Source of the DNA: a virus
Lineage: Duplodnaviria; Heunggongvirae; Uroviricota; Caudoviricetes
Length of the DNA stretch: 40,734 nucleotides
Strand: one strand, 5' to 3'
IMG/VR virus record: IMGVR_UViG_2718217713_000001
Span: 1-40,734 of that record
Position numbers and translations under genes: made by a program. Positions 1,874 to 25,080 of this stretch are shown one piece after another (positions within the stretch are counted from its first letter, which is position 1; each line of letters begins with the position of its first letter). The notes beneath the pieces are model-generated. The model did not search any database. It was given only the letters and a program-made list of their open reading frames with translations, and was not told the origin of the DNA.

Positions 1874-2070
1874 TACTGGCTGCGACATTTTTGAATAAAA
1901 GCGTCGACATTTCGGCGCTCATAACGAACTACTTTTGCACTGAAACGAATTGGTGCCAGGATAGCCCGATGACGATGCTTAATATTCCACTCACATAGCG
2001 TTTTCTGTGTAATACCTAACTTTTGGCATACTTCATCCGGGGTGAGTAAATCGTCGGGTTTCTCGCTCAT
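1870..2070 (-). CDS. AlpA/excisionase-like HTH DNA-binding protein
   Basis: 66-aa ORF, HTH-like segment LTPDEVCQKLGITQKTLCEW; RBS GAGAGG upstream of ATG; start overlaps helicase stop (ATGA); convergent with int. Confidence 0.6.
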   Translation of the reverse strand: MSEKPDDLLTPDEVCQKLGITQKTLCEWNIKHRHRAILAPIRFSAKVVRYERRNVDAFIQKCRSQY

Positions 2071-3461
2071 GCTATACCTCTCTTTTTCATGGCATCGAGC
2101 AGGATGTCCTGCACTGTTCGTTTTGAGTTGCGCCGCTCCATCACCATTTCGTCCATAGTGTCGGCAGCAATAATGTGGTGAATAAATACCGGACGATTGT
2201 GTCCGGCCTGTATCTGTCTGGTTGGGCCGATACGTTCAATAATTTGCTGATACTGCTCCAGGTCCCACCAATGTGAGAAAAATACCAGTATGTTTCCGCC
2301 GTCCTGCATGTTCAGACCGTGGCCCGCGCTGGCTGGGTGTGCAAAGAGAACAGGAATCTTTCCGGAATTCCAGTCACGTAGTGTCTGTGGATCCTGGTCG
2401 AGGTGACGACCGCGAGGAAATGCTTTAAGCAAGCGTTCAAGATCGTGTTTCCAGTGATAAGCAACCAGCACAGGTGCGCCAGCTGCTTCGGTCAGTATGC
2501 TGTCCAGCGCCTGTAGTTTGGTGTCATGCAGTTCTGACCAACTTCCGGTGTCATCTGTGTATACTGCGCCGCTGGCGATTTGCAGACACTTCAGTGTCTT
2601 TGCCGCGGCGTTTGGTGCTTCGATGCCTTCGCCATTCAGCTCGAGGAACATTTCCTTTTCCATTTCACGATACTGCTGACGGGCCTTCGGCGGCATATCC
2701 ACGCGGATTACGTTATGGATGGGGTCTTTGATATCGAACCAGTCGGTCGCATCCAGCGAGAGGGTCACATCGGCTAACGCTCGCTGTATTTCACCCTGTG
2801 AGTGAGCAAAAGGCTCCAGTTTGGTCCAGCTCTGCCCCGGAAACTGTATCGATTTGAACCAGCGTGAGGTAAACGCGCCGTAAGTGCGCCCGAGACGTTG
2901 CCCCAGGTCCACAAACCACGATTGTCCCCACAAATCTACCAGGCCGTTCGGTGCTGGCGTACCGGTGAGATTTATCCAGCGCCGGACATACTTGTGCGCC
3001 ACTTTGCCCAGCGCCGCCGCGCGCTTACCACCACCTCGCAGCCGGAAGGATTTTAGCCGGGTGCTTTCATCTGGAATGACAGTACCGAACGGCCATCGTT
3101 CTCCCAATTCCTCAACCAGCCAGACAAGGTTATCGTAGTTGATGGTGAACACGCTCGCGTTGTTGTTCGCCAACGCTGCAGAGCGCGCTTTGGCATTACC
3201 AACAATTGATTGTACCTCGATATTGCGCAAATGCCCCCACTTCAGTGCTTCATCCGGCCATGTGCTGGCAGCCACGCGCAGCGGCGCGAGAACCAGCGCA
3301 GGTTGTGTTTCTGCACCCGCCATGAAGAGGTCTTCCAGCGTAGTGAGTGTCGCTACGGTTTTACCCATTCCCATACCCGCCCAGATGTTGCCGCGCAGAA
3401 TGTTAGTTTGGTGATTGATTATGAGGTTTTGATAAATTCTGGGGTGGAATATGCTATTCAT
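2067..3461 (-). CDS. SNF2-family (DEAD/DEAH-like) helicase
   Basis: 464 aa; Walker A GMGMGKT, motif II-like DESTRLK, C-terminal helicase domain; RBS AGGTG upstream. Confidence 0.8.
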   Translation of the reverse strand: MNSIFHPRIYQNLIINHQTNILRGNIWAGMGMGKTVATLTTLEDLFMAGAETQPALVLAPLRVAASTWPDEALKWGHLRNIEVQSIVGNAKARSAALANNNASVFTINYDNLVWLVEELGERWPFGTVIPDESTRLKSFRLRGGGKRAAALGKVAHKYVRRWINLTGTPAPNGLVDLWGQSWFVDLGQRLGRTYGAFTSRWFKSIQFPGQSWTKLEPFAHSQGEIQRALADVTLSLDATDWFDIKDPIHNVIRVDMPPKARQQYREMEKEMFLELNGEGIEAPNAAAKTLKCLQIASGAVYTDDTGSWSELHDTKLQALDSILTEAAGAPVLVAYHWKHDLERLLKAFPRGRHLDQDPQTLRDWNSGKIPVLFAHPASAGHGLNMQDGGNILVFFSHWWDLEQYQQIIERIGPTRQIQAGHNRPVFIHHIIAADTMDEMVMERRNSKRTVQDILLDAMKKRGIA

Positions 3462-3534: not shown

Positions 3535-4332
3535 ATGCCCCTGGCGAAAATATTTACAAAGCAAGTTTCTTTATTAACTATGTTTTCAGCGTTAGCTTAT
3601 GCGATGGCATATTATTTTCAGAAAGGTGTCGCATCGTATTATGGCTATCCAGACCTTTTTATTAAAATAGACTTAAATACGCTATTGTATTCGGCTGTGT
3701 GGCTTTTGTTTTTTAGTTTTTTATTTCTCGGCGCCTTATATGCGGCGTTGATGTTTGATTTGAAAGGAAAATATTATGTTCCATTTATTGTATTTATAGT
3801 TGTTATGCTAATGGCTAATATTTGTATAATAGGATTTCATTGGCCTTTTGGTTATTTCTCCGAAACTTCTGTGATGAGTGTTCAGGATATTTTATTATTT
3901 GCTATGCTTTTGTTGAATTATCACAATGTGGTGTCTATGCCAATCCATAGTAAGAGACACGAACATCATATGGAGAGCATTAGAAAATTTGGGAGGCTTG
4001 CAGAGTATAAGAACGTATTTTATTATATCGATTTAAAAATCCTAAAGTCAGCTTTTCCTTTAGGGGTGATAACGTTGTTGATATTGAGCTATACATTCGG
4101 GAAGGTTACTGCATTTAAAAATAACGAATATTATATGGTAGATGGTAGTAATACTAAAGTGTTGCTCAATTCATTTGGTAGTGGTTTTGTTGTTGGTGAT
4201 TGTGAGTCAAATAGCGCAAAATTTGAATTTGTTAATGATTTAAAAGGGATGAGATTCACAATTATGTCCTCTAAAAAGGAAATAGCTAAATTAAAAGAGT
4301 GTTTCGAAATACGTGTTAAAAATACGGATTAA
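3535..4332 (+). CDS. AT-rich multi-pass membrane protein (moron, unknown function)
   Basis: 265-aa ORF with about 5 hydrophobic helices and a soluble C-terminal tail; strong RBS GGAGG; opposite orientation to flanking early genes; low GC compared with neighbours. Confidence 0.55.
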   Translation: MPLAKIFTKQVSLLTMFSALAYAMAYYFQKGVASYYGYPDLFIKIDLNTLLYSAVWLLFFSFLFLGALYAALMFDLKGKYYVPFIVFIVVMLMANICIIGFHWPFGYFSETSVMSVQDILLFAMLLLNYHNVVSMPIHSKRHEHHMESIRKFGRLAEYKNVFYYIDLKILKSAFPLGVITLLILSYTFGKVTAFKNNEYYMVDGSNTKVLLNSFGSGFVVGDCESNSAKFEFVNDLKGMRFTIMSSKKEIAKLKECFEIRVKNTD

Positions 4333-4344
4333 AGCATAAGTCTT

Positions 4345-4632
4345 TTATCCTTTATTGCGGCTTAAAATAATGGCTTCCAGATTTTTGCTATCCAGCACCA
4401 CTACGGTAAAGCCCAGCGCGCGCAACCGTCCGTGTTCGCGCAACTGGTCAGGCCGTGGTGGCTTGCCGGGGGATTTACATTCAACGAAAATGATACGACC
4501 GCCGGGTAGCAGAACAATGCGATCTGGTACCGAGCGGCGACCGGGGGATACGAACTTAAAGGCAACCCCGCCAGCCTTTTTTACTTCAGCGACGAGGTGC
4601 TTTTCGATTAGGTTTTCACGTTCATAGGCCAT
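4345..4632 (-). CDS. VRR-NUC domain nuclease
   Basis: 95 aa; PD-(D/E)xK-type motif PDRIVLL...FVECKSP typical of VRR-NUC; start overlaps upstream stop (TAATG). Confidence 0.8.
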   Translation of the reverse strand: MAYERENLIEKHLVAEVKKAGGVAFKFVSPGRRSVPDRIVLLPGGRIIFVECKSPGKPPRPDQLREHGRLRALGFTVVVLDSKNLEAIILSRNKG

Positions 4633-5060: not shown

Positions 5061-5822
5061 TTACGAGGAAGCGTTAGCTATTTGAGCTTGTGTAAATTCG
5101 AAACCAGAATTTTGTAACCGTTGCACTAGACGAGGAACTGTTTCACGTACATGGTCGTTGAAATTCAGATACAAAATCCCGTTAGCATCAGAAGGCTGTT
5201 CTAGGTGCTGTTTCTGAAGGATTGCTACATTGCTGCGCCCTAAGGACGAAAGAAGCATACCCATCTCGAGTACAACGTTCTGTCTTGCGCGGGGTTGGAT
5301 TTCTGCTTCACCGGCGCGCTTTGAGTATCCCATATCATCAGGTGTCAAAAGAACAATCCCGAAACGGGTAGCAGTTTGTCCTTGCCCAATTTCACGTTCA
5401 AGCTCTTCAATAATGGTGAGTCCAGTCCCTCCCGTATTCTGCAAAATGAAATGGTCTGGTAATCCAAGTTTATGAAGGATTAGCTCAAGTTGCTCCTTTG
5501 CAGTATGGTCATGGCCGTGAACAATGAATATCTTTTTGGGGAGCTCAGATGGCTGTTCTACGGCTAGTGGTGTTGCCGTGGGCGGCGTTCCTAAATGGGT
5601 CATTATTGCAGTTTCAACATTGGGACGTTCTTGAGGGTTACCTTGAAACTGAATGGTCCGGGTGGTGTAAAGGTTAACAATTACGCCATTCGTTAAACGA
5701 TAGCAGTCACAAGTCTCACGCTGTTCGTGGGAAAAATTGGTGAACCCACACTCCCCCAAAAAGTCAGGAAAAGATTCTCTCGGGTATGGATAGGTGATCG
5801 GCATTTCAGTTAGTTCCTGCAT
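5061..5822 (-). CDS. TIR-like (COG4271/PF10137-type) domain protein with unknown N-terminal domain
   Basis: 253 aa; C-terminal about 150 aa carries motifs KIFIVHGHD, GIVLLTPDD, ARQNVVLEMG...LGR that I recall for the bacterial TIR-like nucleotide-binding family; N-terminal about 95 aa unrecognised; RBS AAAGGA upstream. Confidence 0.55.
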   Translation of the reverse strand: MQELTEMPITYPYPRESFPDFLGECGFTNFSHEQRETCDCYRLTNGVIVNLYTTRTIQFQGNPQERPNVETAIMTHLGTPPTATPLAVEQPSELPKKIFIVHGHDHTAKEQLELILHKLGLPDHFILQNTGGTGLTIIEELEREIGQGQTATRFGIVLLTPDDMGYSKRAGEAEIQPRARQNVVLEMGMLLSSLGRSNVAILQKQHLEQPSDANGILYLNFNDHVRETVPRLVQRLQNSGFEFTQAQIANASS

Positions 5823-5886: not shown

Positions 5887-7950
5887 TCAATCTTTTTTGT
5901 AGTGGTACGCCTCAAAACCGCCAGCGTTCAGTGGGATATCGGGCGCCCATTCGGGGTCAGTGGAGAGAAGCGCGGAAAGCGCTTTATCGTTGAAATCTTC
6001 TGTGTCAGGTGCTTCGGTGATCACCTCGTCGTGTACCGTCAGCACAATGCTGTAACCGGCATCTTCGATAAGCGGCATGTTTCCGGCCAGAATGTCGCGG
6101 GCGGCCGCCTGGGTGATGTTCTCCACCAGCTTTCCGCCGTAGGTTTTGAGTCGTTGCCATTTACGCGAATAAGAGTTAACCCCCATGTAGGTGATATTCC
6201 CTTTTTCGATAACCGGAGACGGGTAGCATACAGCGCGTCCTGATGGTAGCTGTATGCGCAGCCACGCGCCATCGCGGCGGATTTTAAGATAACCGCAATA
6301 CAATGTTTTTTGCGGTGTGGCGATTGCAGTGCGGACGGTGCGCTCCAGTTCGTACCAGAAATCACAGGTCGCGGGATGCGCCCGGCGCCAGAGACGTTTA
6401 AGTGAGTCGCAGGCGATAAATACCCGTTCAGAAAGCCCGTAGGTTGACTTGCGTTTAACCGATTCGTCGTACCAGCTTTTCGCCTCGTGGATAACATCGC
6501 GGGGAATGTTTGGTAGTGCGGCGTTCGCCAGCTCGTCGAGATCGAGACCGTAAACCAGTGCAAAAGTGATGAAGGCCGACACACCACCACCATAACCCAG
6601 ACCGAGTTCCATGACTTTACCGATCTGACGCATGTGTTTATCAACATCATCTGGTGCAATATCGAAAGCTTTTGCATACGCCAGTTTATATAAGTCCGGA
6701 CCCGTTCCGGCGTCGTACTCTCTGAATGCATTCAGTTTCCATTCTTCTCCCGCCAGCCATGCCAGCATACGGCCTTCAATGTTCGACAAGTCACTTACCA
6801 CCAGCTTTTTGCCTGTTGGCGCGATAATGCAGCCACGTAACGCTGAACTGGTTAGTTCCATGATATTGTCAAACAGCAGGTCTGCACATCCGGCTTTCAG
6901 TGCTTCGATGCCTTCGTCTATTTGTTCCTGTTTTAGTGAAGGGCGGGGAAGGTTCTGGGGCTGGAATAGCCGTCCGGCCCAACGACCGGTACGTGACGCC
7001 CCGCAGAACTGTAGCGTACCGCGTAAGCGCCCGTCGTGGCTTACGCCTTTCATCAGTGCCTTGTATTTACTGGTGCTGGTAGTACTGGCCTGCAGGCGGA
7101 TAGCCAGCAGTTCTTTCACGGCAGATGGTAAATCGGGGTCGGCAATACGACGTTCCAGAGTACTGCGTTGCATGTCTGGTAGCTCCACACCGTAGGATTC
7201 AACAATGTGCTTAATCAACGCGTCTCGTTGTGTGGCTGCCTGCACTTCGCCATCAGTCATTTCCTGTGTACGCTTTGCCAGGCGCTTTTGTTCCTGGTCT
7301 ACCGCGTCGATCGCAGCGCGTGCGAGTTCCACGTCCATGCAGACGCCCCGGTCATTGATCTGCTGATCACGATGCCAGAGCGTCAGTTCTGTCCCCTGAT
7401 AATTCCACTTCGGCAGACGTTTATAGACTTCGCGCATTGCCTCGATATCCAGTCCGGCGTAAGCAACAAAGCGCCGCCATTCTTCCGGGTGGGTTTTGCT
7501 GGTGGCACGGCGCAGTTTGCTGTTTTTCGGGCGGGGCTTACAGAACAGCTGGATCAGCGCTTTACCTTCTTTGTCCTTCGCTTTGTCTTGCGGGACGCCT
7601 AGTACTTCGCAGAGTTCCCCCAGAGACCCCGGGAGACCGTGCGCCAGCGCCTGCACCATTGTGTCGCGCCAACGTTCGACTGGCGGTGCCAGGCGCGGCA
7701 TTGCATAACGCAGGACGGTGCGGTCGAAGTGAGAGTTATGGAAATAAAGCAGGGTTTCAGGGTCTGCGATTGCTTCGTATAAGCCGTGTGGAATACCACC
7801 ACCGGCAGTGATATCCCACACGTTTACGGGCCCGTCGTTGATAGCCCATGCGAACAGCATCACTTCAACGCCTTCGGCATACGCATGGGTACCGTTCGTA
7901 ATAGGGATTTCGCAATAGGTTTCTAGGTCACCCCATAGTATATTGGACAT
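5887..7950 (-). CDS. Family A DNA polymerase (T7-like, with 3'-5' exonuclease domain)
   Basis: 687 aa; motif [14 protein letters not shown], motif [17 protein letters not shown], motif C VHDEV; N-terminal exonuclease-like region. Confidence 0.9.
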
Positions 7951-8343: not shown

Positions 8344-8982
8344 TTAAGCATCTACCCCTTCGTCAGAAGGGAGGCCGATCATTTCGTTGAGAGTTTCGCG
8401 TCGTATAGCTGGCGGAAGCGGAGCAGATGGTGCATCGGCTGGCAGAAGTTCTTTAGCTTCAGGCCACTCTTCCAGCAGGCGCTTAACTGTGCGCACTTTA
8501 CTGAGTGCAGCGCTGACATTCTGTCGAATGTCTGACTCATCGCTCTGTATCTGCTCATAAAGTGCATCAAACCCGTAAAACTCTGTAACTAGAGGGTCAT
8601 TTGCCAGAAGGGTAAATTCCCCCGGCGCGATTTTGTGAATATGGTCTGGTGACCCTGATTCATATCCTCGATAGTTACCGTTGAAATAGACGGTAACCCG
8701 AGAACCTGCCAGATTCAGACACATGTAACACTCTTTCCTGATAATATTATTGGCGGTTTTTAATGCTTCGGGGAATTTTGATACCAGTGTTTCTATTTTT
8801 TTTATAATTTTTAATATTTCAGCTTCTTTCTCTACGCCCCCGATAGCTGCAAGCCGAACACGTTCGGCCCATTCAACACGAGCAGCTCGTAGTGCTGATT
8901 TACGTTTGGGGATACCCGCTTTCTCAAGTGCGTTATTGATGATTTGAGTTTTAAGGTGATTAGTTAATACGGGCTGTGACAT
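8344..8982 (-). CDS. Hypothetical phage protein
   Basis: ORF track 8344..8997; internal ATG at 8982 has the better RBS (GAGGGAAAG); no recognisable motif. Confidence 0.55.
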   Translation of the reverse strand: MSQPVLTNHLKTQIINNALEKAGIPKRKSALRAARVEWAERVRLAAIGGVEKEAEILKIIKKIETLVSKFPEALKTANNIIRKECYMCLNLAGSRVTVYFNGNYRGYESGSPDHIHKIAPGEFTLLANDPLVTEFYGFDALYEQIQSDESDIRQNVSAALSKVRTVKRLLEEWPEAKELLPADAPSAPLPPAIRRETLNEMIGLPSDEGVDA

Positions 8983-9034: not shown

Positions 9035-9583
9035 TTAAATTAGTGCTTCAGCATCAGCACCTTCGCTGATATCGTCGAAATCGTCAGCGCTTGCCACTCC
9101 GCCGCCAGCGAATGCATCGCCGTCTCGCAGGAACTGGACTCCGCCGAGTGAGGCATTAATGCGTTTACCGAAATTATTGTCCTGTGCCCAGATATCGATA
9201 ACGGCGTTTACATAGCACCCTGCATAGGGACGTCCGTCAGCCTGAATAAGTGGCGAACGATCGCGATCAAGAACAGCTGGGCGCGCTTTGTTAGCAGCAT
9301 TCAGGAAGAAATTACCGGGGAAGCCTTCATACTCTGCTTTTTCATCACCATCATGCAGGCACAGATTGAGTTTTTTCTCCAGCTGGTTATAAATGGGCTC
9401 CCACTTCTCTCCCCATTTTTCCTTCGCTACCTGCTTCATAGCTTTACGGATTTCTTCCAGTTGTGGGTGTTTGGGTGACATTAAAAATACTGCGGAGAAA
9501 CGTGGATCGCCTTCGCCGTTTACAGTTTTAGCTTCAAACAGAGACGGGAAGGCCAGACGAACATTGTTCAGCTTCAGTTTCAT
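9035..9583 (-). CDS. DUF2815-family phage protein (putative ssDNA-binding protein)
   Basis: 182 aa starting MKLKLNNVRLAFPSLFEAK, typical of the DUF2815 family that accompanies phage family-A polymerases; RBS AAGGA. Confidence 0.7.
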   Translation of the reverse strand: MKLKLNNVRLAFPSLFEAKTVNGEGDPRFSAVFLMSPKHPQLEEIRKAMKQVAKEKWGEKWEPIYNQLEKKLNLCLHDGDEKAEYEGFPGNFFLNAANKARPAVLDRDRSPLIQADGRPYAGCYVNAVIDIWAQDNNFGKRINASLGGVQFLRDGDAFAGGGVASADDFDDISEGADAEALI

Positions 9584-9598
9584 GGGTATTTCCTTAAA

Positions 9599-10900
9599 TC
9601 AGATGAGGTCTGCGGTTAGCGTATCGTCGGATACGTCGTCGAAATCATTTATAGGGTTGATATTGAGTGCGGGGCGTGGGTCTGACTCGGGAACGACGGT
9701 GGGTTTACCATCAGCTCGTGTTATCAGTGCCTCGACTTTTGACCAACGGCGCGGACTGGCCTTTTTGATAAGTTTTTCGGCTTTTGTGGGGCTAATAAGT
9801 TTAAAGTCGAATACTTCTTCAGTTTTGTACCTGAACTGGTCCTTCAGAAGTGCGCGAGCTGCCTCTTCATCACTCCAGGCCCGGTTACCTTGTTTTCCTG
9901 TTACCAGTTTAAACCCCGGTACCGGATGTCCGGCATTGAGTTCATTGTGAACCCGGTCTCGTACTGCCTTTAGCCAGGATTCAATAAAGTCGGCCTGGCT
10001 ATAGATCTCCGCAAGCTGCTCAATGGTTAACAGAGGTACACGTGCGCTGGCATTGGTGATTATTTCGCTGACAGGCTTTGTCAGATCTTCAAAATCGCTG
10101 GCCGCTGTTTGTAAATGCTGCATTTTCTGGGCAGTGCAAATAGCTTTTGCTTTACAGAAGCGGCACTGTTTTTCTCCAGGTATGAAGTTTTCCAGCGGTA
10201 GTGTCTCAATGCCTTCGCATTCAGCAATATTGAGAACAAGGATCGCACTGGTTGCGGCCTCCTGTGCCCGTTCACCGAAAGACTGAAGTTCCTGTACGGT
10301 TAACGACCATTCTGAAACGTGGTTGAGCCTTGGCTGGTGAATAAATAATCTTACAGTCTCAAAGTCATACAGCATGCTGAATTGTTCGAGTGCACCCAGG
10401 GCATACAGTTGTAGTTGCTCATTTTGTTCTGCATCAATGCGGACGCCTTTGCCATATTTCAGGTCGTGGATTTGTAATTCGTTACCAGCGATGATTATGC
10501 CGTCGGCAGTTCCGAAAGATTCTTCCACACCCGTTATATGTGAGAAATCAACACGTTGTTCAACCAATAGTTCATTATTCTGTGCAAGAGTCCAGACCGT
10601 ATCAACATACCGGCCAACGGCTTCGACCATTTCATCATCCACCTGTGGGCCAGATGTATCATCAGGATTTTCGCGAAGGGGGTATGAGCCGAGAAACATA
10701 GAAACATTGCATCCGGCGTAGTGTTCCGGGTGGCTTTGCCTGTTTCGTAGAACTTTTTCAGCAAGCGCGTGCGCTGCAGTGCCCTCGATTGCAAAAGTTG
10801 TTTCTTTATCCGGTTGTGTGGCCTCCAGCGCCAGACTTCCTGGGCAGCGCATCCATCGATGCGCTGATGATGGAGAAAGTTGTGCGTGAACGTCTGGCAT
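9599..10900 (-). CDS. DUF2800-family PD-(D/E)xK nuclease (Cas4-like)
   Basis: 433 aa with N-terminal [14 protein letters not shown] motif and Cys cluster ([10 protein letters not shown]); RBS GGAGGG. Confidence 0.75.
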
Positions 10901-10902
10901 GA

Positions 10903-11805
10903 TTAACCCTCCAGTGCTTTTTCAGCCAGGGTGATTACTTCAGCGAGATTTTCATCCGTTACTTCACCAAGTTTCCTGGCTCCCTGTTTTTCCAGAATTG
11001 CAATAGCTTCTGCCCGGTAGCCCCCTTTTGCTAACTGGAGGATCAACCCTTCAGCTTGTTTGCGTAGTGCCGCGAAATCAATTGTATGGTCATCTTTGGC
11101 GTCATGATTCTGGCTGGAATTTGCTGCGTCTCTGCGTGCAAATTCTTCCTGCAGCTGAAGGTACTCAACACGGTTGATCTCGATATGGCCTTTTTTAAGC
11201 ATCTCGTTCAACTTGCGTAAGGTGTGGAGTTCACTGGCTGCTGTGCCGGATACATTTTTGACGTAAAACGGCCCCGTGCGTTCTCCATCTTTGTCACTGG
11301 CCTTTTTCGGCTTAACTTCATCACGCCCATCTGCAGGTGCATCAAGTAGCTGCTCGGCAAAAGCGCGTCGCTCGCCGATGGTTGGCAGGTCGTCCCAGAA
11401 CTTAAGAATGTTACGGGACAGGTCCAGGAGAGCAGGTTTAAGCAGCGCCCTGGCTCGTTTGACGCCCTGCAATGCGCTGTCGAGAGCATCAATCTGAACT
11501 ACTCGTTTATCGCCTTCAGCATCACGGTAGGCAACAGCACGTTGCAGCATATCTTCTGTGATAGGGGTGGCTACCGGGTAGAAACCAGCCAGTGCGATAA
11601 CGTCGCTGAACTCCAGATCATCCAGTGTCATTGCCGCTGACATATTTTCAGTTTCAGTTGCTGTATCCCGACATTCCTGCACTCGTGAAATTGTGTCAGG
11701 ATGCATAACAATACCTGATGCCATTGTGCGGATAAGACGTTCAAGCAGCGCATTATGTTGTGCCAGAAGTTGATTATTAAGTTCTAGACTGGTTTCTAAA
11801 CTCAT
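10903..11805 (-). CDS. Hypothetical phage protein (acidic, 300 aa)
   Basis: ORF with RBS GAGGA, tightly packed in the early-left operon. Confidence 0.55.
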
Positions 11806-12598: not shown

Positions 12599-13291
12599 TC
12601 AGAGCAGAACGGAGTACCAAAATACTTGGCCTATAATCCTGATTTTATTAGCCTCTTGATTAAAATACTCTTCGTCTGCGTATTCATCCCTATTGAAAGA
12701 GCGTATCCGGAGTCCGCTTGGGAGACGGTACAATAGTTTGACACGAAGTAATCCGTCTTGGTCTATAGCGTACATTTGACCATCTTTTACACCTGTTTTT
12801 GATGTATCTATGCCGACGACAGCGCCATCCGGTAATACCGGTTCCATGCTGTTGCCGTGGATGCTGACACAAGCCGCACAATTTACGTCAACACCTGCTT
12901 TGCGCAACGTTGAACGGGCGAATCTTAACTTACATCCCATTCGATCTATATCAACATAAGTACCATTACCGGCAGACAGTTCAATTTCCTGATAGAACGG
13001 TATTTCCACTTCATCATCCTCTAATGGTGTTGATGAGTCCCATACAGAAAACCCCCCTTCAACTTGTGCATTAGAATGTATTTCTTTGGTATCGCTTGTT
13101 TTGCCTGAAAGTAGCCACTCTGGAGAAACGTTCAATGCTTCGGCCAGATTTATAAGATTTTTCCCGTTAGGTGTGGTGTTTCCGGATTCCCATTGTGAAA
13201 TCGTGGCTTTAGTTAGACCAATACGTTTAGCAAGCGCATCCTGCGTTAGGTGGACATTGCGACGAGCCTCGCGAATACGATCATTAATCAT
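12599..13291 (-). CDS. CI-like repressor (XRE-type HTH + S24 LexA-like peptidase domain)
   Basis: 230 aa; N-terminal HTH (LTQDALAKRIGLTKATISQWESG); C-terminal S24-like segment with GNSMEP and a downstream Lys; diverges from the cro-like gene. Confidence 0.85.
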   Translation of the reverse strand: MINDRIREARRNVHLTQDALAKRIGLTKATISQWESGNTTPNGKNLINLAEALNVSPEWLLSGKTSDTKEIHSNAQVEGGFSVWDSSTPLEDDEVEIPFYQEIELSAGNGTYVDIDRMGCKLRFARSTLRKAGVDVNCAACVSIHGNSMEPVLPDGAVVGIDTSKTGVKDGQMYAIDQDGLLRVKLLYRLPSGLRIRSFNRDEYADEEYFNQEANKIRIIGQVFWYSVLL

Positions 13292-13404
13292 GGTTTTACC
13301 CTCATATAGTTTAGTTAGCTTAACTTAATCAGGGTATCGCTTTCTTGACTTATTGGTTTAGTTTTCTTAACCTCATATAACCATATATTTCCTGGGTAAC
13401 GGTT
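13292..13404. promoter_or_regulatory. Divergent repressor/cro promoter-operator region (genetic switch)
   Basis: 113-bp intergenic between divergent cI-like and cro-like genes; candidate PR TTGGTT-N17-TATAAC (13353..13381); repeated CTTAAC-containing motifs. Confidence 0.5.
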
Positions 13405-13587
13405 ATGAAAAAAGCAGAAGCAATTGAGCTTGCAGGAAGTAAAGCGAAACTAGCGAGACTATTGAAGGTTTCCAAAGGCGCCGTATCTCAATGGGGGGAG
13501 GAAATCCCAGAGCTAAGAGCTCTTCAACTTGAAAAGATTTTGGAGCAAAAAAATGTAGTCAAACAAAAAGGCGTAACCCATGTCTGA
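13405..13587 (+). CDS. Cro-like HTH regulator
   Basis: 60 aa, HTH (KAKLARLLKVSKGAVSQW), first gene rightward of the switch; stop overlaps the next gene. Confidence 0.65.
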   Translation: MKKAEAIELAGSKAKLARLLKVSKGAVSQWGEEIPELRALQLEKILEQKNVVKQKGVTHV

Positions 13588-15841
13588 TAACAAACCATGG
13601 GGAGCTACGCCCGATGAGTGGTTCCACTTCGATCTGGTGTTGGGGATGACAGACAGGCTTTTACCTGTGGTGTCCAATCCCTGTGCAGAACTGTCGCCTA
13701 ATAGCAAGCTGTCTCATAATTTCGGCAAAACCCCCAGTCGCTACAATGGCCAACGTAAGGTTGTTGGTATCCCCGACTGGGCTAACTATGTTGTTACGGA
13801 AAACGATTTTGCCCGGTGGTCGAACGAACCCGATTACGGTATTTGCGTTCGTACTGGCGACGGGGTGGTGGCTCTGGACTGCGATATCAATGACGCCGGG
13901 ATGCAGGAGATCGTACGCAATATTATCCTATCATGCCTGGGGGAACTTCCGCCACGTCGCTGGCGGGCTGACAGTCATAAATGCCTGTACCTGATTGCTG
14001 TTGATGGCGACTACCGTAAACGTGGTCACCGCCTGGAAGGCGAAAACAAACAAATAGAGCTGCTCGCTAAGGGCCAGCAGTTTGTGGCTTGTGGTACCCA
14101 TCCGGCAGGCGAACGTATTCAGTGGGACTGCGGTTTGCCCGGCGAACCTCTGAAAATTACATCTGAACAGCTCGAAAGCCTGTGGCAGCGTCTGGCGGAT
14201 AACTTACCCGTGAAAGACAGCTATACCGCAGGTGCAGGACGTCAGCGTGACCTTTCCTGTGTTGATCCTTCCGCGACAGATGATGTCGCCGACTGGCTTG
14301 ACGCGAACGGGTGGACTCTGTCAGTCAGCTCTGATGGTTCCCGCAATCTGAAACCGTTTCGGGATGAGTCAGAATACAGCAACGGTTGCAGCGAAACATC
14401 CATTAAGTATTTCCCAAAAGGGACGGGGGGATTTGAACAGGGACATTTTAAAAGCATGCACAACACCGATGCGGGGCTTACTGATGCCGACTGGCTGGAA
14501 GGCTACGGCTATACGCAATCCCTGTTCGAAGATCTCACGGTGGTTGAAGATGGCGATAAGCCTGAATTTACCGATATTAATACAGATATGACAGCTCATT
14601 TTCTGGAACGCTTTATCTACGTTATCGAGGGTGACCAGGTATGTGATCTTAGCCGACCGCCATATCAGTGCATGATGGATATGAAGTCGTTCAAAAACCT
14701 GATGGCGCCTTACCAGTTCCCGCCAGAAGGGAAAGGGCAACCAACTCCCGCAACCAAACGGTGGATAGAGCATCGGCATAAGAAGATTGCTGAGACGACA
14801 GGCTATAAGCCCGGTGCGGGACGTATTATCGAGCGTTTCGACGGGCGGTTTGAGATAAACGAATTTTATATGCCTGAGCATCCACGTACAGCGGATACAA
14901 GTAAGGTGTCCACGTTCCTTAATCATATGGCGTATCTGGTACCTGATGCCTGGCAGCGCGAGTTTTTCATCGCCCGTCTGGGGTGGATGGTTCAGCGTCC
15001 GGAGCGTCGATGCCCGATTTCTATTCTGCATGTGGCTACCGCACATGGTACGGGCAGAGGATGGGTCAGTCAGTTAATGGAGCGCGTGCTTGGCCCGTGG
15101 AACTGTGCTCGTACTCGCATGAAGATCCTGTGCGATAACCAGTTCCATGACTATCTGTACAATACGCTTCTATGCACCATTGACGAGGTGCGCGAAAATG
15201 ATAAGCGGTATGAGGTGAACGATAAGATCCGTGACGTGCTGACAGAACCACGGTTTGAAGTGAACCGCAAATATGGCAGCAAAAAAACGATGGATATATA
15301 CACCGGCTTTCTGTTCTACACCAACCACTTTGATGCGCTGGCGCTGCCAGAGGAAGACCGACGTATAGCTGTGCTGGGGGGCCCTGACTTCGCCGCAACT
15401 GAAGAGCATTACGCCAGCCTGTACGGTGCGCTAAGCGACAGCGACTTTATCGCCCAGGTGTACTGGTATCTAATGGGCGTTGACCTGTCTCGCTTTAACT
15501 GGCAGCGCGCCCCCGAGACGAAAGAACGCCTTCTGATGATTGAAAGCAATAAGAGCGATGTGGAGGCTGCTCTTATTGAAATCCTGGATAATCCGCCTGT
15601 GCCAGCAATGACTTATCAACAAATTGTTAACGCAATACTGGCAGAAGCAGGAATGGATGTAGAAATTAACCAGAAGCATATTACTCGCATTTTGAAAGAA
15701 AGAACAAAACGTGAAGCAGTGAAACTAAAAGTGGACGGCATGACTGTTCGCATGTGGATGCTTGCAAAAAATTGCGACTTCAATAATGAGGAATTGCGTG
15801 AAATATATAAAACATGCGAAATTTTGCAATCTGGATTGTAA
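13580..15841 (+). CDS. Replication initiation protein with N-terminal primase-polymerase (AEP-like) domain
   Basis: 753 aa; DxD-type motif VVALDCDIND and downstream His-containing motif; no canonical Walker A seen in the C-terminal part; immediately followed by the iteron array. Confidence 0.65.
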   Translation: MSDNKPWGATPDEWFHFDLVLGMTDRLLPVVSNPCAELSPNSKLSHNFGKTPSRYNGQRKVVGIPDWANYVVTENDFARWSNEPDYGICVRTGDGVVALDCDINDAGMQEIVRNIILSCLGELPPRRWRADSHKCLYLIAVDGDYRKRGHRLEGENKQIELLAKGQQFVACGTHPAGERIQWDCGLPGEPLKITSEQLESLWQRLADNLPVKDSYTAGAGRQRDLSCVDPSATDDVADWLDANGWTLSVSSDGSRNLKPFRDESEYSNGCSETSIKYFPKGTGGFEQGHFKSMHNTDAGLTDADWLEGYGYTQSLFEDLTVVEDGDKPEFTDINTDMTAHFLERFIYVIEGDQVCDLSRPPYQCMMDMKSFKNLMAPYQFPPEGKGQPTPATKRWIEHRHKKIAETTGYKPGAGRIIERFDGRFEINEFYMPEHPRTADTSKVSTFLNHMAYLVPDAWQREFFIARLGWMVQRPERRCPISILHVATAHGTGRGWVSQLMERVLGPWNCARTRMKILCDNQFHDYLYNTLLCTIDEVRENDKRYEVNDKIRDVLTEPRFEVNRKYGSKKTMDIYTGFLFYTNHFDALALPEEDRRIAVLGGPDFAATEEHYASLYGALSDSDFIAQVYWYLMGVDLSRFNWQRAPETKERLLMIESNKSDVEAALIEILDNPPVPAMTYQQIVNAILAEAGMDVEINQKHITRILKERTKREAVKLKVDGMTVRMWMLAKNCDFNNEELREIYKTCEILQSGL

Positions 15842-15844
15842 AAA

Positions 15845-16109
15845 GGTGGCAGCAAGGTGGCAGATAAACGACTAACTGCCACCTTAAAAAGTGCATATAA
15901 ATCAATTTGATACTGTAAAAAGGTGGCAGGTGGCAGTAGAATTTAAATTATATACGCGAGAACTTATATTTTATGTATTATGCGATCTCTTATATATATA
16001 TATATAACTAAAACTATCTGCCACCTGCCACCAAAATAGCCCGGAGCCTTACGTGGCGTGCGTTTCAGGAGGTGGCAGATAGCTATTTAACTGCCACCTA
16101 ACTGCCACC
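15845..16109. repeat. Origin-like iteron array: 10 copies of GGTGGCAG (5 forward, 5 inverted) around an AT-rich core
   Basis: Forward copies at 15845, 15856, 15922, 15929, 16071; inverted CTGCCACC at 15876, 16018, 16025, 16091, 16102; AT-rich core 15940..16015 includes (TA)8. Confidence 0.75.
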
Positions 16110-16158
16110 CGGAAATTAACTTGAAAAAATTAGCAAATAACTAAATGAGGATACGACG

Positions 16159-16449
16159 ATGTCAAAGATATTCCGCCAATGTATGCCTTACGGTATCCGC
16201 AAAACAGCTGAGGGGGCTTGGGAAGCATTCAACAGAGACTACCAGCCCTTAGGGGAGGCTTTTTTCTTCAAAAGAGCACTAACGCAGGCCACTCGAGATG
16301 TGTTGGCGCCACCGCCGGTAACTCAGCGCGACGACTGTGTATGGCTGTATAGCGATATCGAGCACCCGATGCACTCTGAGGCTTACTGGAAAGCGTATTG
16401 CCAGCGGCTTAAACATCTTTCTAACCTCAAAATGAAAGATGAACGGTAA
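16159..16449 (+). CDS. Hypothetical phage protein
   Basis: 96-aa ORF with RBS GAGGA 8 nt upstream. Confidence 0.5.
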   Translation: MSKIFRQCMPYGIRKTAEGAWEAFNRDYQPLGEAFFFKRALTQATRDVLAPPPVTQRDDCVWLYSDIEHPMHSEAYWKAYCQRLKHLSNLKMKDER

Positions 16450-16474
16450 GTAGCAAAACGTAGAGGTCAGAGCT

Positions 16475-16897
16475 ATGCGTAATATTCAACAGGTTTTAGA
16501 GCGCTGGGGGGGCTGGGCAGCGAGTGAAGGTGGTAGCGTCTACTTTCCTCCTGTTGCAGCCGGGTTTAAGAATCTGCTACCCGCGACGCAGTCTGGAAGG
16601 CTGAAATGCAGTGACAATGACGGTCTTATCATCAACTCCGCTATGAGCTGCCTGAAGAAAAAAGATCCGTATCTGTGCACGCTCCTTGAGTGGCATTACG
16701 TCCAGGCCATGCCCGTGCGGGCGATGGGTGAGAAGCTCGGCGTATCTCACACCCACGTTCTGAAGAGGCTTCAGGCGGCAGAGGGATTTATTGACGGTTG
16801 CTTAGCCATGCTGGATGTGGTGCTCGAAATGGATCAGTCGGTTCAGTCAAAGCCTCAGGCTATCAGGACTTTGCGTAGGAGCTGCTCGGCGGCATAA
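16475..16897 (+). CDS. Q-type late antiterminator (phage 21/82 Q-like)
   Basis: 140 aa; MRNIQQVLERWGGWAA..AAGFK...LKRLQAAEGFIDGCLAMLDVVLEMD resembles prophage Q-like antiterminators as I recall them; located upstream of the lysis genes. Confidence 0.7.
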   Translation: MRNIQQVLERWGGWAASEGGSVYFPPVAAGFKNLLPATQSGRLKCSDNDGLIINSAMSCLKKKDPYLCTLLEWHYVQAMPVRAMGEKLGVSHTHVLKRLQAAEGFIDGCLAMLDVVLEMDQSVQSKPQAIRTLRRSCSAA

Positions 16898-23874: not shown

Positions 23875-25080
23875 ATGGCGGTTGATATTAAAGATGTCGA
23901 ACAGGTCGCGCAGGAGCTGCAGCAGAAGTTTGACGACTTCAAAGCAAAGAACGACAAGCGCGTGGATGCGATTGAGCAGGAAAAAGGCAAGCTTGCCGGG
24001 CAGGTGGAAACCCTGAACGGGAAACTCAGCGAGCTGGAAAATCTCAAAAGCGACCTTGAAAAAGAGCTGCTTGAGCTGAAACGTCCGGCAGGTGGAGCGC
24101 AAAATAAACTGGCCACCGAGCATAAAGAGGCGTTTGTGGGCTTCCTGCGTAAAGGCCGTGAAGACGGTCTGCGCGATCTGGAGCGTAAGGCATTGCAGGT
24201 GGGTACCGATGAAGACGGTGGCTACGCCGTGCCGGAAGAACTGGATCGCAACATTCTTAACCTGCTGAAAGATGAAGTGGTGATGCGTCAGGAAGCCACG
24301 GTGATCACCGTTGGCGGTTCCGACTACAAAAAACTGGTGAATCTGGGCGGTACGGCTTCCGGATGGGTGGGGGAAACGGATACGCGAGCCCAGACTGCCA
24401 CCTCCAGACTGGAGCTGATTGAACCTCTCATGGGGGAAATCTACGGCAACCCGCAGGCTACCCAGAAAATGCTGGACGATGCCTTCTTCAACGTGGAGGC
24501 CTGGATCAACAGCGAGCTGGCAACCGAATTTGCCGAACAGGAAGAAATTGCCTTTACCTCAGGCGATGGCACCAAGAAGCCGAAAGGGTTCCTGGCGTAT
24601 GAATCCACTGATGAAACCGACAAGGTCCGGGCGTTCGGCAAACTTCAGCATATTGTATCCGGCGAAGCGACCGCGGTGACCGCAGACGCCATTATCAAAC
24701 TGATTTACACGCTGCGTAAGGCACACCGCACTGGCGCGAAGTTCATGATGAACAACAACAGCCTGTTTGCCATCCGTCTGCTGAAAGACACCGAGGGTAA
24801 CTATCTGTGGCGTCCGGGGCTGGAACTGGGGCAGCCGTCCTCTCTGGCGGGTTACGGTATCGCTGAAAACGAACAGATGCCGGATATCGCCGCTGATGCG
24901 AAAGCCATTGCATTTGGTAACTTCAAACGGGGTTACACCATCGTTGACCGTATCGGCACCCGCATTCTGCGTGACCCGTACACCAATAAACCGTTTGTCG
25001 GTTTTTATACCACCAAACGCACCGGCGGCATGCTGGTCGATTCGCAGGCCATCAAACTGCTGAAGATTGCAGTGGCGTAA
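23875..25080 (+). CDS. Major capsid protein (HK97 fold, with N-terminal delta/scaffold domain)
   Basis: 401 aa; coiled-coil N-terminal about 100 aa then capsid domain; strong RBS AGGAG. Confidence 0.85.
   Translation: MAVDIKDVEQVAQELQQKFDDFKAKNDKRVDAIEQEKGKLAGQVETLNGKLSELENLKSDLEKELLELKRPAGGAQNKLATEHKEAFVGFLRKGREDGLRDLERKALQVGTDEDGGYAVPEELDRNILNLLKDEVVMRQEATVITVGGSDYKKLVNLGGTASGWVGETDTRAQTATSRLELIEPLMGEIYGNPQATQKMLDDAFFNVEAWINSELATEFAEQEEIAFTSGDGTKKPKGFLAYESTDETDKVRAFGKLQHIVSGEATAVTADAIIKLIYTLRKAHRTGAKFMMNNNSLFAIRLLKDTEGNYLWRPGLELGQPSSLAGYGIAENEQMPDIAADAKAIAFGNFKRGYTIVDRIGTRILRDPYTNKPFVGFYTTKRTGGMLVDSQAIKLLKIAVA

Follow-up and report, generated by a model that had tools for sequence, protein, structure and literature searches.

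The replication origins closest in design to the element described here are those of phage-parasitic islands. As set out in PMC9371898, which cites Ubeda 2007 and 2012, and in PMC6092414, the origins of Staphylococcus aureus pathogenicity islands (SaPIs) carry 6-12 iterons of 5-6 nt immediately downstream of rep. According to the former paper, an AT-rich centre divides the iterons into two equal halves, each of which contains opposed sites; the reader is the C-terminal winged helix of a superfamily 3 (SF3) helicase that loads itself and that binds and melts DNA without ATP; and in SaPI5 a primase is fused to Rep, giving PriRep5 (PMC9371898). Function of the pri-rep-ori arrangement was demonstrated for EcCICFT073, a Gram-negative phage-inducible chromosomal island (PICI) of E. 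coli (Fillol-Salom 2018, PMC6092414), whose Pri-Rep was described as a distant homologue of P4 alpha; alpha itself is a single polypeptide with primase, SF3 helicase and, at the C-terminus, a winged helix that binds the origin (PMC2777425). Autonomous replication driven by rep and ori has been shown for SaPIs as well as for EcCICFT073, and origins of this type are characterized by specific iteron binding through the winged helix and by dependence on matched Rep-ori pairs. Here, we describe an array of short repeats in the window, that is, the whole 40,734-nt stretch of Caudoviricetes DNA from IMG/VR record IMGVR_UViG_2718217713_000001, on which all coordinates are given. The origin design already known from phage-parasitic islands is found here in a complete E. 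coli phage, and the sequence evidence indicates that the array is very probably the replication origin of a lambdoid prophage, read by the initiator protein encoded next to it.

The octamer GGTGGCAG occurs in 10 exact copies within 15845-16109, five per strand, and the array starts 4 nt past the initiator stop codon (15839-15841). The first-pass annotation, which had placed five forward and five inverted copies of an 8-bp motif directly downstream of a primase-polymerase gene, was therefore right on both counts. In the whole window the octamer is present 15 times against 1.33 copies expected, a number reached by 0 of 100 shuffles. Sites on the plus strand of the array start at 15845, 15856, 15922, 15929 and 16071, and those on the minus strand at 15876, 16018, 16025, 16091 and 16102, which gives the orientation order ++-++ on the left and --+-- on the right. 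The gaps between site starts are 11, 20, 46 and 7 on the left arm and 7, 46, 20 and 11 on the right arm, and all five mirror pairs share one common midpoint, 15977.0. On the other hand, the spacers between the octamers are non-palindromic; the two arms agree at only 70 of 138 positions, motifs included. The octamer forms the invariant part of a longer site of 11-12 bp, A-GGTGGCAG-n-T-A, with A at -1 in 8 of 10 sites, T at +2 in 8 of 10 and A at +3 in 7 of 10, and the same flank preferences were seen in 109 sites pooled from 11 relatives. Given a site of about 11-12 bp, the first two sites adjoin each other as 11-bp units, with a spacing of one helical turn. The octamer forms no second cluster in the window. 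Five extra exact copies lie scattered at 24395(-), 26409(+), 26599(+), 36179(+) and 37134(-), on the downstream side of the lysis and terminase genes and none less than 190 bp from another; note that about 1.3 copies are expected window-wide by shuffles.

Between the two inner tandem pairs lies an AT-rich core whose GC content of 18.5%, against 50.7% for the window, makes it the lowest-GC 80-bp stretch of the whole 40.7 kb. The AT-richness and the (TA)8 run (15991-16006) recorded in the first-pass annotation stand, but the core measures 81 bp instead of the 75 bp given there. Within the core, the conserved word TATATACGCGAGA at 15949-15961 has the mirror copy CGTATATA, of which the window's (TA)8 is an expanded form. 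In nine relatives, an inverted pair (C)TATATAC(G) sits on the dyad axis of the octamer array to within ~1 bp, indicating that the symmetry is nested, with outer triplets, inner tandem pairs and a core repeat about one axis. Core length among relatives is 76-84 bp, and the variation lies mostly in the (TA)n run.

The window locus shares several features with SaPI and PICI origins. The origin is located immediately 3' of the initiator gene, at the same offset in all window relatives; two iteron sets with opposed sites per side surround an AT-rich region; and the initiator joins an SF3-type helicase to a winged helix at the C-terminus, as judged for the window protein from DUF5906, the match to NrS-1 and a structural model. 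We extracted the EcCICFT073 origin from the CFT073 chromosome and found eleven GGTAGAYA-type sites, in the order << > <<< on one side and >> < >> on the other, with mirror-symmetric gaps of 9, 48, 20, 11 and 11, 21, 47, 9. Its site-orientation order, ++-+++ and --+-- in the notation used for the window array, is the same as that of the window, whereas the order of spacings differs. Both initiators match Pfam DUF5906, the only family that they share, and no significant overall similarity was detected between the window initiator and EcCICFT073 Pri-Rep (BLASTP E 0.37). Furthermore, the primase is a Prim-Pol of the archaeo-eukaryotic primase (AEP) type in the window but D5_N + DUF5906 + Pox_D5 is found in EcCICFT073 Pri-Rep; the word is 8-11 bp long, compared with 5-6 nt in the SaPIs; and the 81-bp core compares with ~25-32 bp between the inner sets of EcCICFT073. 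The window element is also unlike a PICI in that it is a complete temperate phage, which has its own genes for head, tail and lysis, and not a satellite that depends on a helper phage. By analogy, it would function like a PICI or SaPI origin while being neither a PICI nor equipped with an initiator of the same family.

The layout is kept among relatives and the word is not. Versions of the array region at 100%, ~91%, ~79% and ~75% identity were found in 45 E. coli genomes. The order ++-++, core, --+--, at the same offsets from the stop codon, is present in ~35 relatives, which come from E. coli, Erwinia, Izhakiella, Serratia and IMG/VR contigs. Initiator identity in this set is 67-100%, and the intergenic sequence has otherwise drifted. 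The left outer triplet keeps its position and orientation in all full-length relatives. In an alignment of nine E. coli versions, the ten sites are fixed in position and orientation and the word is changed jointly: it is GGTGGCAG in the window, L002 and L003 (class A), GGTGACGG in L001 and L004-L007 (class B, with GGTGACAG or GGTGACGC at some sites) and GGTAACAG in L008 and L009 (class C). Full-length relatives with 67-83% protein identity (Erwinia tracheiphila, Izhakiella, Serratia and IMG/VR contigs), in which the word was taken as the most frequent octamer counted de novo, show the same layout with two added words, GGTGACAG and GGTGTCAG. Overall, five words (GGTGGCAG, GGTGACGG, GGTGACAG, GGTGTCAG and GGTAACAG) of the general form GGTnnCnG were recovered. 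The ten-site layout was kept even in L096 and L097, despite C-terminal domains that are only 55% and 49% identical to that of the window. However, no array was found downstream of the initiator of L099 (C-terminal domain 41% identical, other gene context), indicating that either the design is not universal for the domain family or the L099 origin lies elsewhere. Two further observations were made in these loci. In L096, a second, unrelated word, GTAACAACC, occurs 5 times in both orientations just past the origin (4125-4215) and overlaps the start of an 88-aa open reading frame (ORF). In L007 (774-3042; E. coli CAU16175), the initiator is annotated as frameshifted (pseudogene) and the downstream class B array is intact; this prophage is probably decaying.

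That ten sites switch together is explained if a single reader recognizes one word. Natural controls for this come from domain shuffling at ~aa 330 of the initiator: in L041, L043 and L045-L094, the same Prim-Pol N-terminus is followed by a VapE-like helicase and another C-terminus. Identity to the window protein over aa 1-330 is 97% in L041, and in L045 and others it is ~60%. Directly past the stop codon of these initiators, two opposed sets of unrelated words (TACTCAACC, GGAACCAC, AGACAACC, AGACCACC, GTACCAAC and GAAGCCAC) are arranged around a (TA)n core. Another predicted reader thus goes with another word, and the design is unchanged.

We then asked which part of the module predicts the word, by comparing identity per region with sharing of the word in 465 pairs from 31 loci. 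The last 160 nt of the initiator gene (rep) gave an area under the curve (AUC) of 0.90, and between-class identity there was at most 87%. The remaining regions reached 100% identity between classes, with AUC values of 0.49 for cI-cro, 0.66 for rep nt 1-2090 and 0.60 for ORF-Q. Within the protein, aa 707-729 had an AUC of 0.88 for octamer class, and between-class pairs were never more than 83% identical; on the other hand, the flanks (aa 674-706 and aa 730-753) had AUC values of 0.66-0.67 and were up to 100% identical between classes. Although the E. coli initiators are ~98% identical overall, 11 of the 11 residues that discriminate the three E. coli classes fall in aa 701-750. In the model described below, aa 707-729 correspond to the end of the recognition helix H3 and the wing. 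As far as sequence comparison can tell, the word follows this segment alone and is independent of cI, Cro and Q, of the remaining initiator sequence and of the 24 tail codons. The proposal of the first-pass annotation that the C-terminal domain of the initiator is the binder is supported by this co-variation.

One could argue that the initiator 3' end and the array are exchanged together through adjacency alone, with no functional link between them. Nucleotide identity of the initiator gene is 99-100% up to ~nt 2100, then falls to 77% and stays low on through the array, as expected of one swapped cassette. Several results speak against this explanation, to which we give little credence. The association skips the 72 nt nearest the array, which excludes simple linkage: the 24 codons between the wing codons and the array are, at the nucleotide level, 97% identical between the window and L008, whose words differ, but only 88% identical between the window and L003, which share both the word and a wing at 96% identity. 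Non-synonymous change is concentrated in the wing, with a pN (non-synonymous differences per non-synonymous site) of 0.30 there against 0.07 in the tail between classes A and B, at similar pS (the synonymous equivalent). In these codon comparisons, a one-codon insertion in L008 shifts its figures for the wing and aa 674-706, so that only its figure for the 24 tail codons was used; the other pairs used were free of insertions and deletions. A TDLVK..G(M/I)GYRFW wing goes with GGTAACAG in both E. coli and Serratia on backbones only 68% identical, and the downstream neighbour, although equally adjacent, does not co-vary. We also considered a one-to-one code between wing tripeptide and word, which was rejected: ATV occurs with GGTGTCAG in L096 and KKE with GGTGGCAG in L097, indicating that other residues must contribute. 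The wing-to-word relation breaks down in distant relatives.

A cluster of operators for another protein (Cro, cI, Q, the product of the 96-aa ORF or a host factor), controlling read-through of the early operon into Q, would also place repeats here. Transcripts from the early promoter do have no apparent route to Q other than across the array, and no promoter-like site was found on the plus strand between the array and Q. Nevertheless, this is a very unlikely account, since the word is independent of cI, Cro, the ORF and Q. L002 and L004 have identical alleles of all four with different words, and the same ORF (WP_000034494) and the same Q (WP_001561877) are found with both class A and class B octamers; the AUC values for cI-cro and ORF-Q, given above, are far from that of the initiator 3' end. 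A host factor fails to account for five words within one host species, and neither a DnaA box (up to 1 mismatch) nor an integration host factor (IHF) consensus was found in 15701-16250.

The symmetry of the array might instead serve nucleic-acid structure: the inverted octamers could fold DNA, or the pR transcript, into a long and imperfect hairpin or a cruciform, which would signal processing or termination before Q or be used as a single-strand origin. In keeping with this, the single strand of the array folds at -58.4 kcal/mol, compared with -27.0 kcal/mol for shuffles (z -8.6), and the equal spacer lengths on both arms would produce symmetric internal loops. Pairing, however, needs only site i to complement site 11-i, yet a single word is used, and is changed jointly, by all pairs and by the direct repeats within each arm, and in none of the ~35 relatives were five pairs of differing words found under kept pairing. 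Moreover, the spacers are non-complementary, the flank preferences (A at -1, T-A at +2/+3) follow the orientation of each site, and the word co-varies with a protein segment. No T-run of the kind seen in terminators was found. A scan against Rfam returned no family for the array, only miRNA-precursor-like matches far below threshold, which are attributable to the inverted repeats. We therefore judge a purely structural role to be scarcely probable. Finally, a packaging (pac/cos) or centromere-like partition site, bound by terminase or a ParB-like protein, is extremely improbable: such sites are likewise clusters of short repeats in both orientations, but here the word tracks the initiator wing, the terminase genes are ~3.5 kb downstream and are not of one type in the relatives with a conserved array (the window prophage has the P27-family type, L005 and L006 another small-subunit type), no parA or parB is annotated, and the element is an integrated prophage with its integrase beside host genes.

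An initiator-read origin, on the other hand, is in accordance with the conserved layout, the concerted word switching, the co-variation with the wing and the match to the PICI/SaPI design, and these results favour the earlier proposal of an initiator-binding layout with a DNA-unwinding element. The initiator itself has Pfam matches to Prim-Pol (aa 75-185) and DUF5906 (aa 488-595) and matches PHROG 1156, 'DNA primase', at E 6e-85. A profile of the family searched against PDB found the helicase domain of the NrS-1 primase (6k9c, E 2.6e-31) and the prim-pol domain of pRN1 ORF904 (1ro0/3m1m, E 0.002), which are the only solved structures reached by sequence. In single-sequence searches of PDB, the full protein matched the NrS-1 helicase only and the C-terminal domain found no relative. 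SaPI Rep and PriRep were not reached by the sequence and profile searches of PDB; P4 alpha (1KA8) was not found by these searches either, and neither SaPI Rep nor P4 alpha was among the top fold matches listed.

A homologue search with the C-terminal 153 aa alone gave 15 matches, mostly fragments. An exhaustive search yielded 101 representative clusters with the domain, which is nearly always C-terminal in proteins of 700-800 aa and has a conserved '...KLLQ...' helix and a 'K..G-xxx-R.W' hairpin. With a shallow alignment of 10 sequences, AF2 modelling of the C-terminal region gave a pLDDT of 49, and that model was discarded; the accepted model was built on a 29-sequence alignment of trimmed representatives and has a pLDDT of 87.3. 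Its topology is H-b-H-H-b-b-H, and its fold matches are winged-helix only. In full-length numbering, the modelled recognition helix H3 spans aa 698-709, strand b2 aa 714-718, a DG turn aa 719-720 and strand b3 aa 721-727, which places the co-varying residues at the end of H3 and in the wing.

Based on SaPI Rep and on SF3 initiators generally, we propose the following mechanism. The initiator would be made from the early rightward transcript, and its C-terminal winged helix would read the ~11-bp sites around GGTGGCAG with the end of the recognition helix and the beta-hairpin wing. Winged helices would fill the five sites of each arm, and since the five sites per side are exact mirror images, two initiator oligomers, probably hexamers, are proposed to assemble face to face across the core. 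The core, with its low GC content and its own concentric inverted repeat, would then melt, and each helicase ring could load on single-stranded DNA and travel outward. The N-terminal Prim-Pol may lay the first primers, which the phage DNA polymerase would extend both ways.

Other well-described origins resemble the window locus in part. P4 type I iterons are octamers too and occur in both orientations. Like the window initiator, P4 alpha combines primase, SF3 helicase and C-terminal winged helix in one protein; however, its primase is DnaG-type, whereas the window N-terminus is an AEP Prim-Pol (PF09250) as in pRN1 ORF904, and replication of P4 requires crr, a further cis site, for which the window offers no counterpart in the form of another octamer cluster. 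ORF904 and NrS-1 have the domain order of the window protein, namely prim-pol, SF3-type helicase and C-terminal winged helix, and in pRN1 the cis region that is essential is found downstream of the gene, as the window array is. Nonetheless, a cognate binding site of ORF904 could not be found, and no iteron array of the window kind has been described for ORF904 or NrS-1. The lambda ori/O system occupies the same place in the early right operon, between cro and Q, with iterons beside an AT-rich region, and in the lambdoid phages lambda, phi80, 82 and 434 the DNA-binding part of the initiator and the iterons move together as a specificity cassette. The lambda iterons are inside the O gene and P recruits the host DnaB, whereas the window iterons are intergenic, outside the initiator gene, and no homologue of O or P was found between cro and Q. 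The window initiator, unlike lambda O, is predicted to be helicase and primase itself, with a C-terminal reader and no recruitment of DnaB. Iteron plasmids and oriC have 17-22-bp direct repeats in one orientation, DnaA boxes and often IHF sites, compared with 8-12-bp sites in both orientations in the window array and neither a DnaA box nor an IHF consensus found in 15701-16250. P4 ori/crr, lambda O/P and the iteron-plasmid/oriC types thus each fail in at least one defining feature. In eukaryotic viruses, the large T antigen of SV40 and polyomavirus and papillomavirus E1 are SF3 initiators that act as two opposed hexamers on dyad-symmetric arrays of short words beside easily melted AT-rich DNA. 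Their origin-binding fold is unrelated and they have no fused primase, so that the comparison is one of working principle and homology is not claimed.

The array region forms the early right arm of a lambdoid-type prophage, in the order cI, Cro, initiator, array, 96-aa ORF and Q (Table 1). The rightward early transcript presumably starts in the immunity region (12599-13587) and continues across initiator gene and array in the direction of Q. In a scan of the plus strand from 15841 to 16475, which includes the array, neither a terminator-like site nor a strong promoter was found, indicating that the origin is transcribed. Whether transcription across the origin activates it, or gates Q expression, is a matter of speculation. 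A 100%-identical copy of the array region is present in the chromosomes of E. coli C11 and C10. The C11 prophage is annotated as complete and integrated, with its integrase adjoining host genes, lysis genes (holin and endolysin), HNH, a P27-type terminase, portal, an HK97-type head with capsid, and a contractile tail with sheath, tube, tape measure and baseplate. The features of the leftward operon in Table 1 were taken from the RefSeq annotation of this 100%-identical prophage (L095); window coordinates equal L095 coordinates minus 4201, as checked on the ORF at 10903-11805. According to these genes, the phage supplies its own polymerase set, plus a TIR protein.

Table 1. Coordinates of the candidate origin, the initiator gene and surrounding genes in the window.
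Feature	Position	Strand	Remarks
DEAD/DEAH helicase	2067-3461	-	
VRR-NUC	4345-4632	-	
TIR-domain protein	5061-5822	-	
DNA polymerase	5887-7950	-	
Nmad5	8344-8982	-	
DUF2815	9035-9583	-	
DUF2800	9599-10900	-	
cI-like repressor	12599-13291	-	Pfam HTH_3 + Peptidase_S24
Cro	13405-13587	+	Pfam P22_Cro
Initiator gene	13580-15841	+	753 aa; N-terminal Prim-Pol (AEP), central DUF5906/SF3-type helicase, C-terminal winged helix
C-terminal winged-helix domain	15512-15838	+	aa ~645-753; predicted iteron reader
Specificity segment	15698-15766	+	aa 707-729; H3 end + beta2-turn-beta3 wing; ...KERTKREAVKLKVDG-MTV-RMWML
Left outer iteron triplet	15845-15883	both	15845-15852 (+), 15856-15863 (+), 15876-15883 (-); starts 11 and 20 bp apart
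Left inner tandem pair	15922-15936	+	15922-15929 and 15929-15936; 1-nt overlap (GGTGGCAGGTGGCAG)
AT-rich core	15937-16017		81 bp, 18.5% GC; presumed DNA-unwinding element
Right inner tandem pair	16018-16032	-	16018-16025 and 16025-16032
Asymmetric element AGCCTTACGTGGCG	16045-16058		right spacer only; left spacer A-rich, no counterpart; from alignment of 11 diverse origins
Right outer iteron triplet	16071-16109	both	16071-16078 (+), 16091-16098 (-), 16102-16109 (-); exact mirror of left triplet
96-aa ORF	16159-16449	+	no family match
Antiterminator Q	16475-16897	+	

The cultured phages vB_EcoM-606R2, -689R2, -611R5 and -683R1 carry the module at 95% identity and are the only cultured phages with a full-length initiator. 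In L002 (4433-5668) and L004 (4432-5667), genes for the stx2b A and B subunits and a tRNA-Arg are found ~300 bp past Q, indicating that the replication module is present in Shiga-toxin (Stx)-converting phages. In the 'Eru10' replication region of Stx phages, the interval from cI to stx was described as containing nothing but Q and a primase-polymerase protein of PF09250, and neither an origin nor iterons are mentioned in that description (PMC8951638). The window fits Eru10 as described there, with cI, cro, the Prim-Pol protein, a small ORF and Q. Typing studies had only catalogued this module, for which the array now provides a concrete candidate origin, including in Stx2b-converting phages; the level of replication affects toxin gene dosage after induction. 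The design of two iteron sets around an AT centre 3' of a self-loading helicase gene is, moreover, not exclusive to PICIs, contrary to the suggestion of the PICI paper, and is found also in complete temperate phages with an unrelated (AEP) primase fusion.

A wider reading would treat each word with its matching wings as a replication-specificity group and the ~20-residue hairpin as a recognition code, with the array coupling Q expression to replication; we offer this tentatively and consider it, taken as a whole, possible but rather doubtful. If it were true, at least five word-wing groups comparable to immunity groups would exist, their diversity being kept by selection, and co-resident prophages, or satellites that copy the origin design, would be unable to use each other's initiator. 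The hairpin, with three hypervariable positions, would re-program the reading of bases 4, 5 and 7 of GGTnnCnG and would represent a natural, engineerable recognition code for a self-loading helicase. As a further possibility, an initiator-coated array might tie expression of late genes, in relatives that of Shiga toxin, to the start of replication. In any case, the five or more word-wing pairs on nearly identical backbones constitute a natural specificity-swap series for a winged helix on an SF3 helicase, and the array, with its exact and nested mirror symmetry, is well suited to structural studies of how two helicase rings are loaded at an origin.

Some minor elements in and beside the array were also recorded. 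The asymmetric element AGCCTTACGTGGCG of the right spacer has the consensus AGCCTTAyrtGGCG among relatives, and a conserved word, ACGCGAGA, is located at 15954-15961 in the left half of the core; either could be a priming start or a host-factor site. Right after the last iteron, relatives with a 76-aa downstream ORF (L003, L006 and L007) have a 16-bp perfect palindrome, TTGCAAATATTTGCAA, of which the window contains a degenerate form, TTGAAAAAATTAGCAA, at 16121-16136; another regulator might use the palindrome as its operator. Over 3 kb, GC skew changes sign locally at the core, which merely reflects octamer orientation, and we made no evidential use of it. Finally, several ORFs run across the array, namely 15616-15882(-) and 15780-15905(-) from the mechanical ORF list of the window and a 111-aa ORF in L097 (3790-4125) that was called by a public gene caller and has no Pfam match. 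These ORFs are probably spurious, and calls of this kind would hide the origin in annotations.

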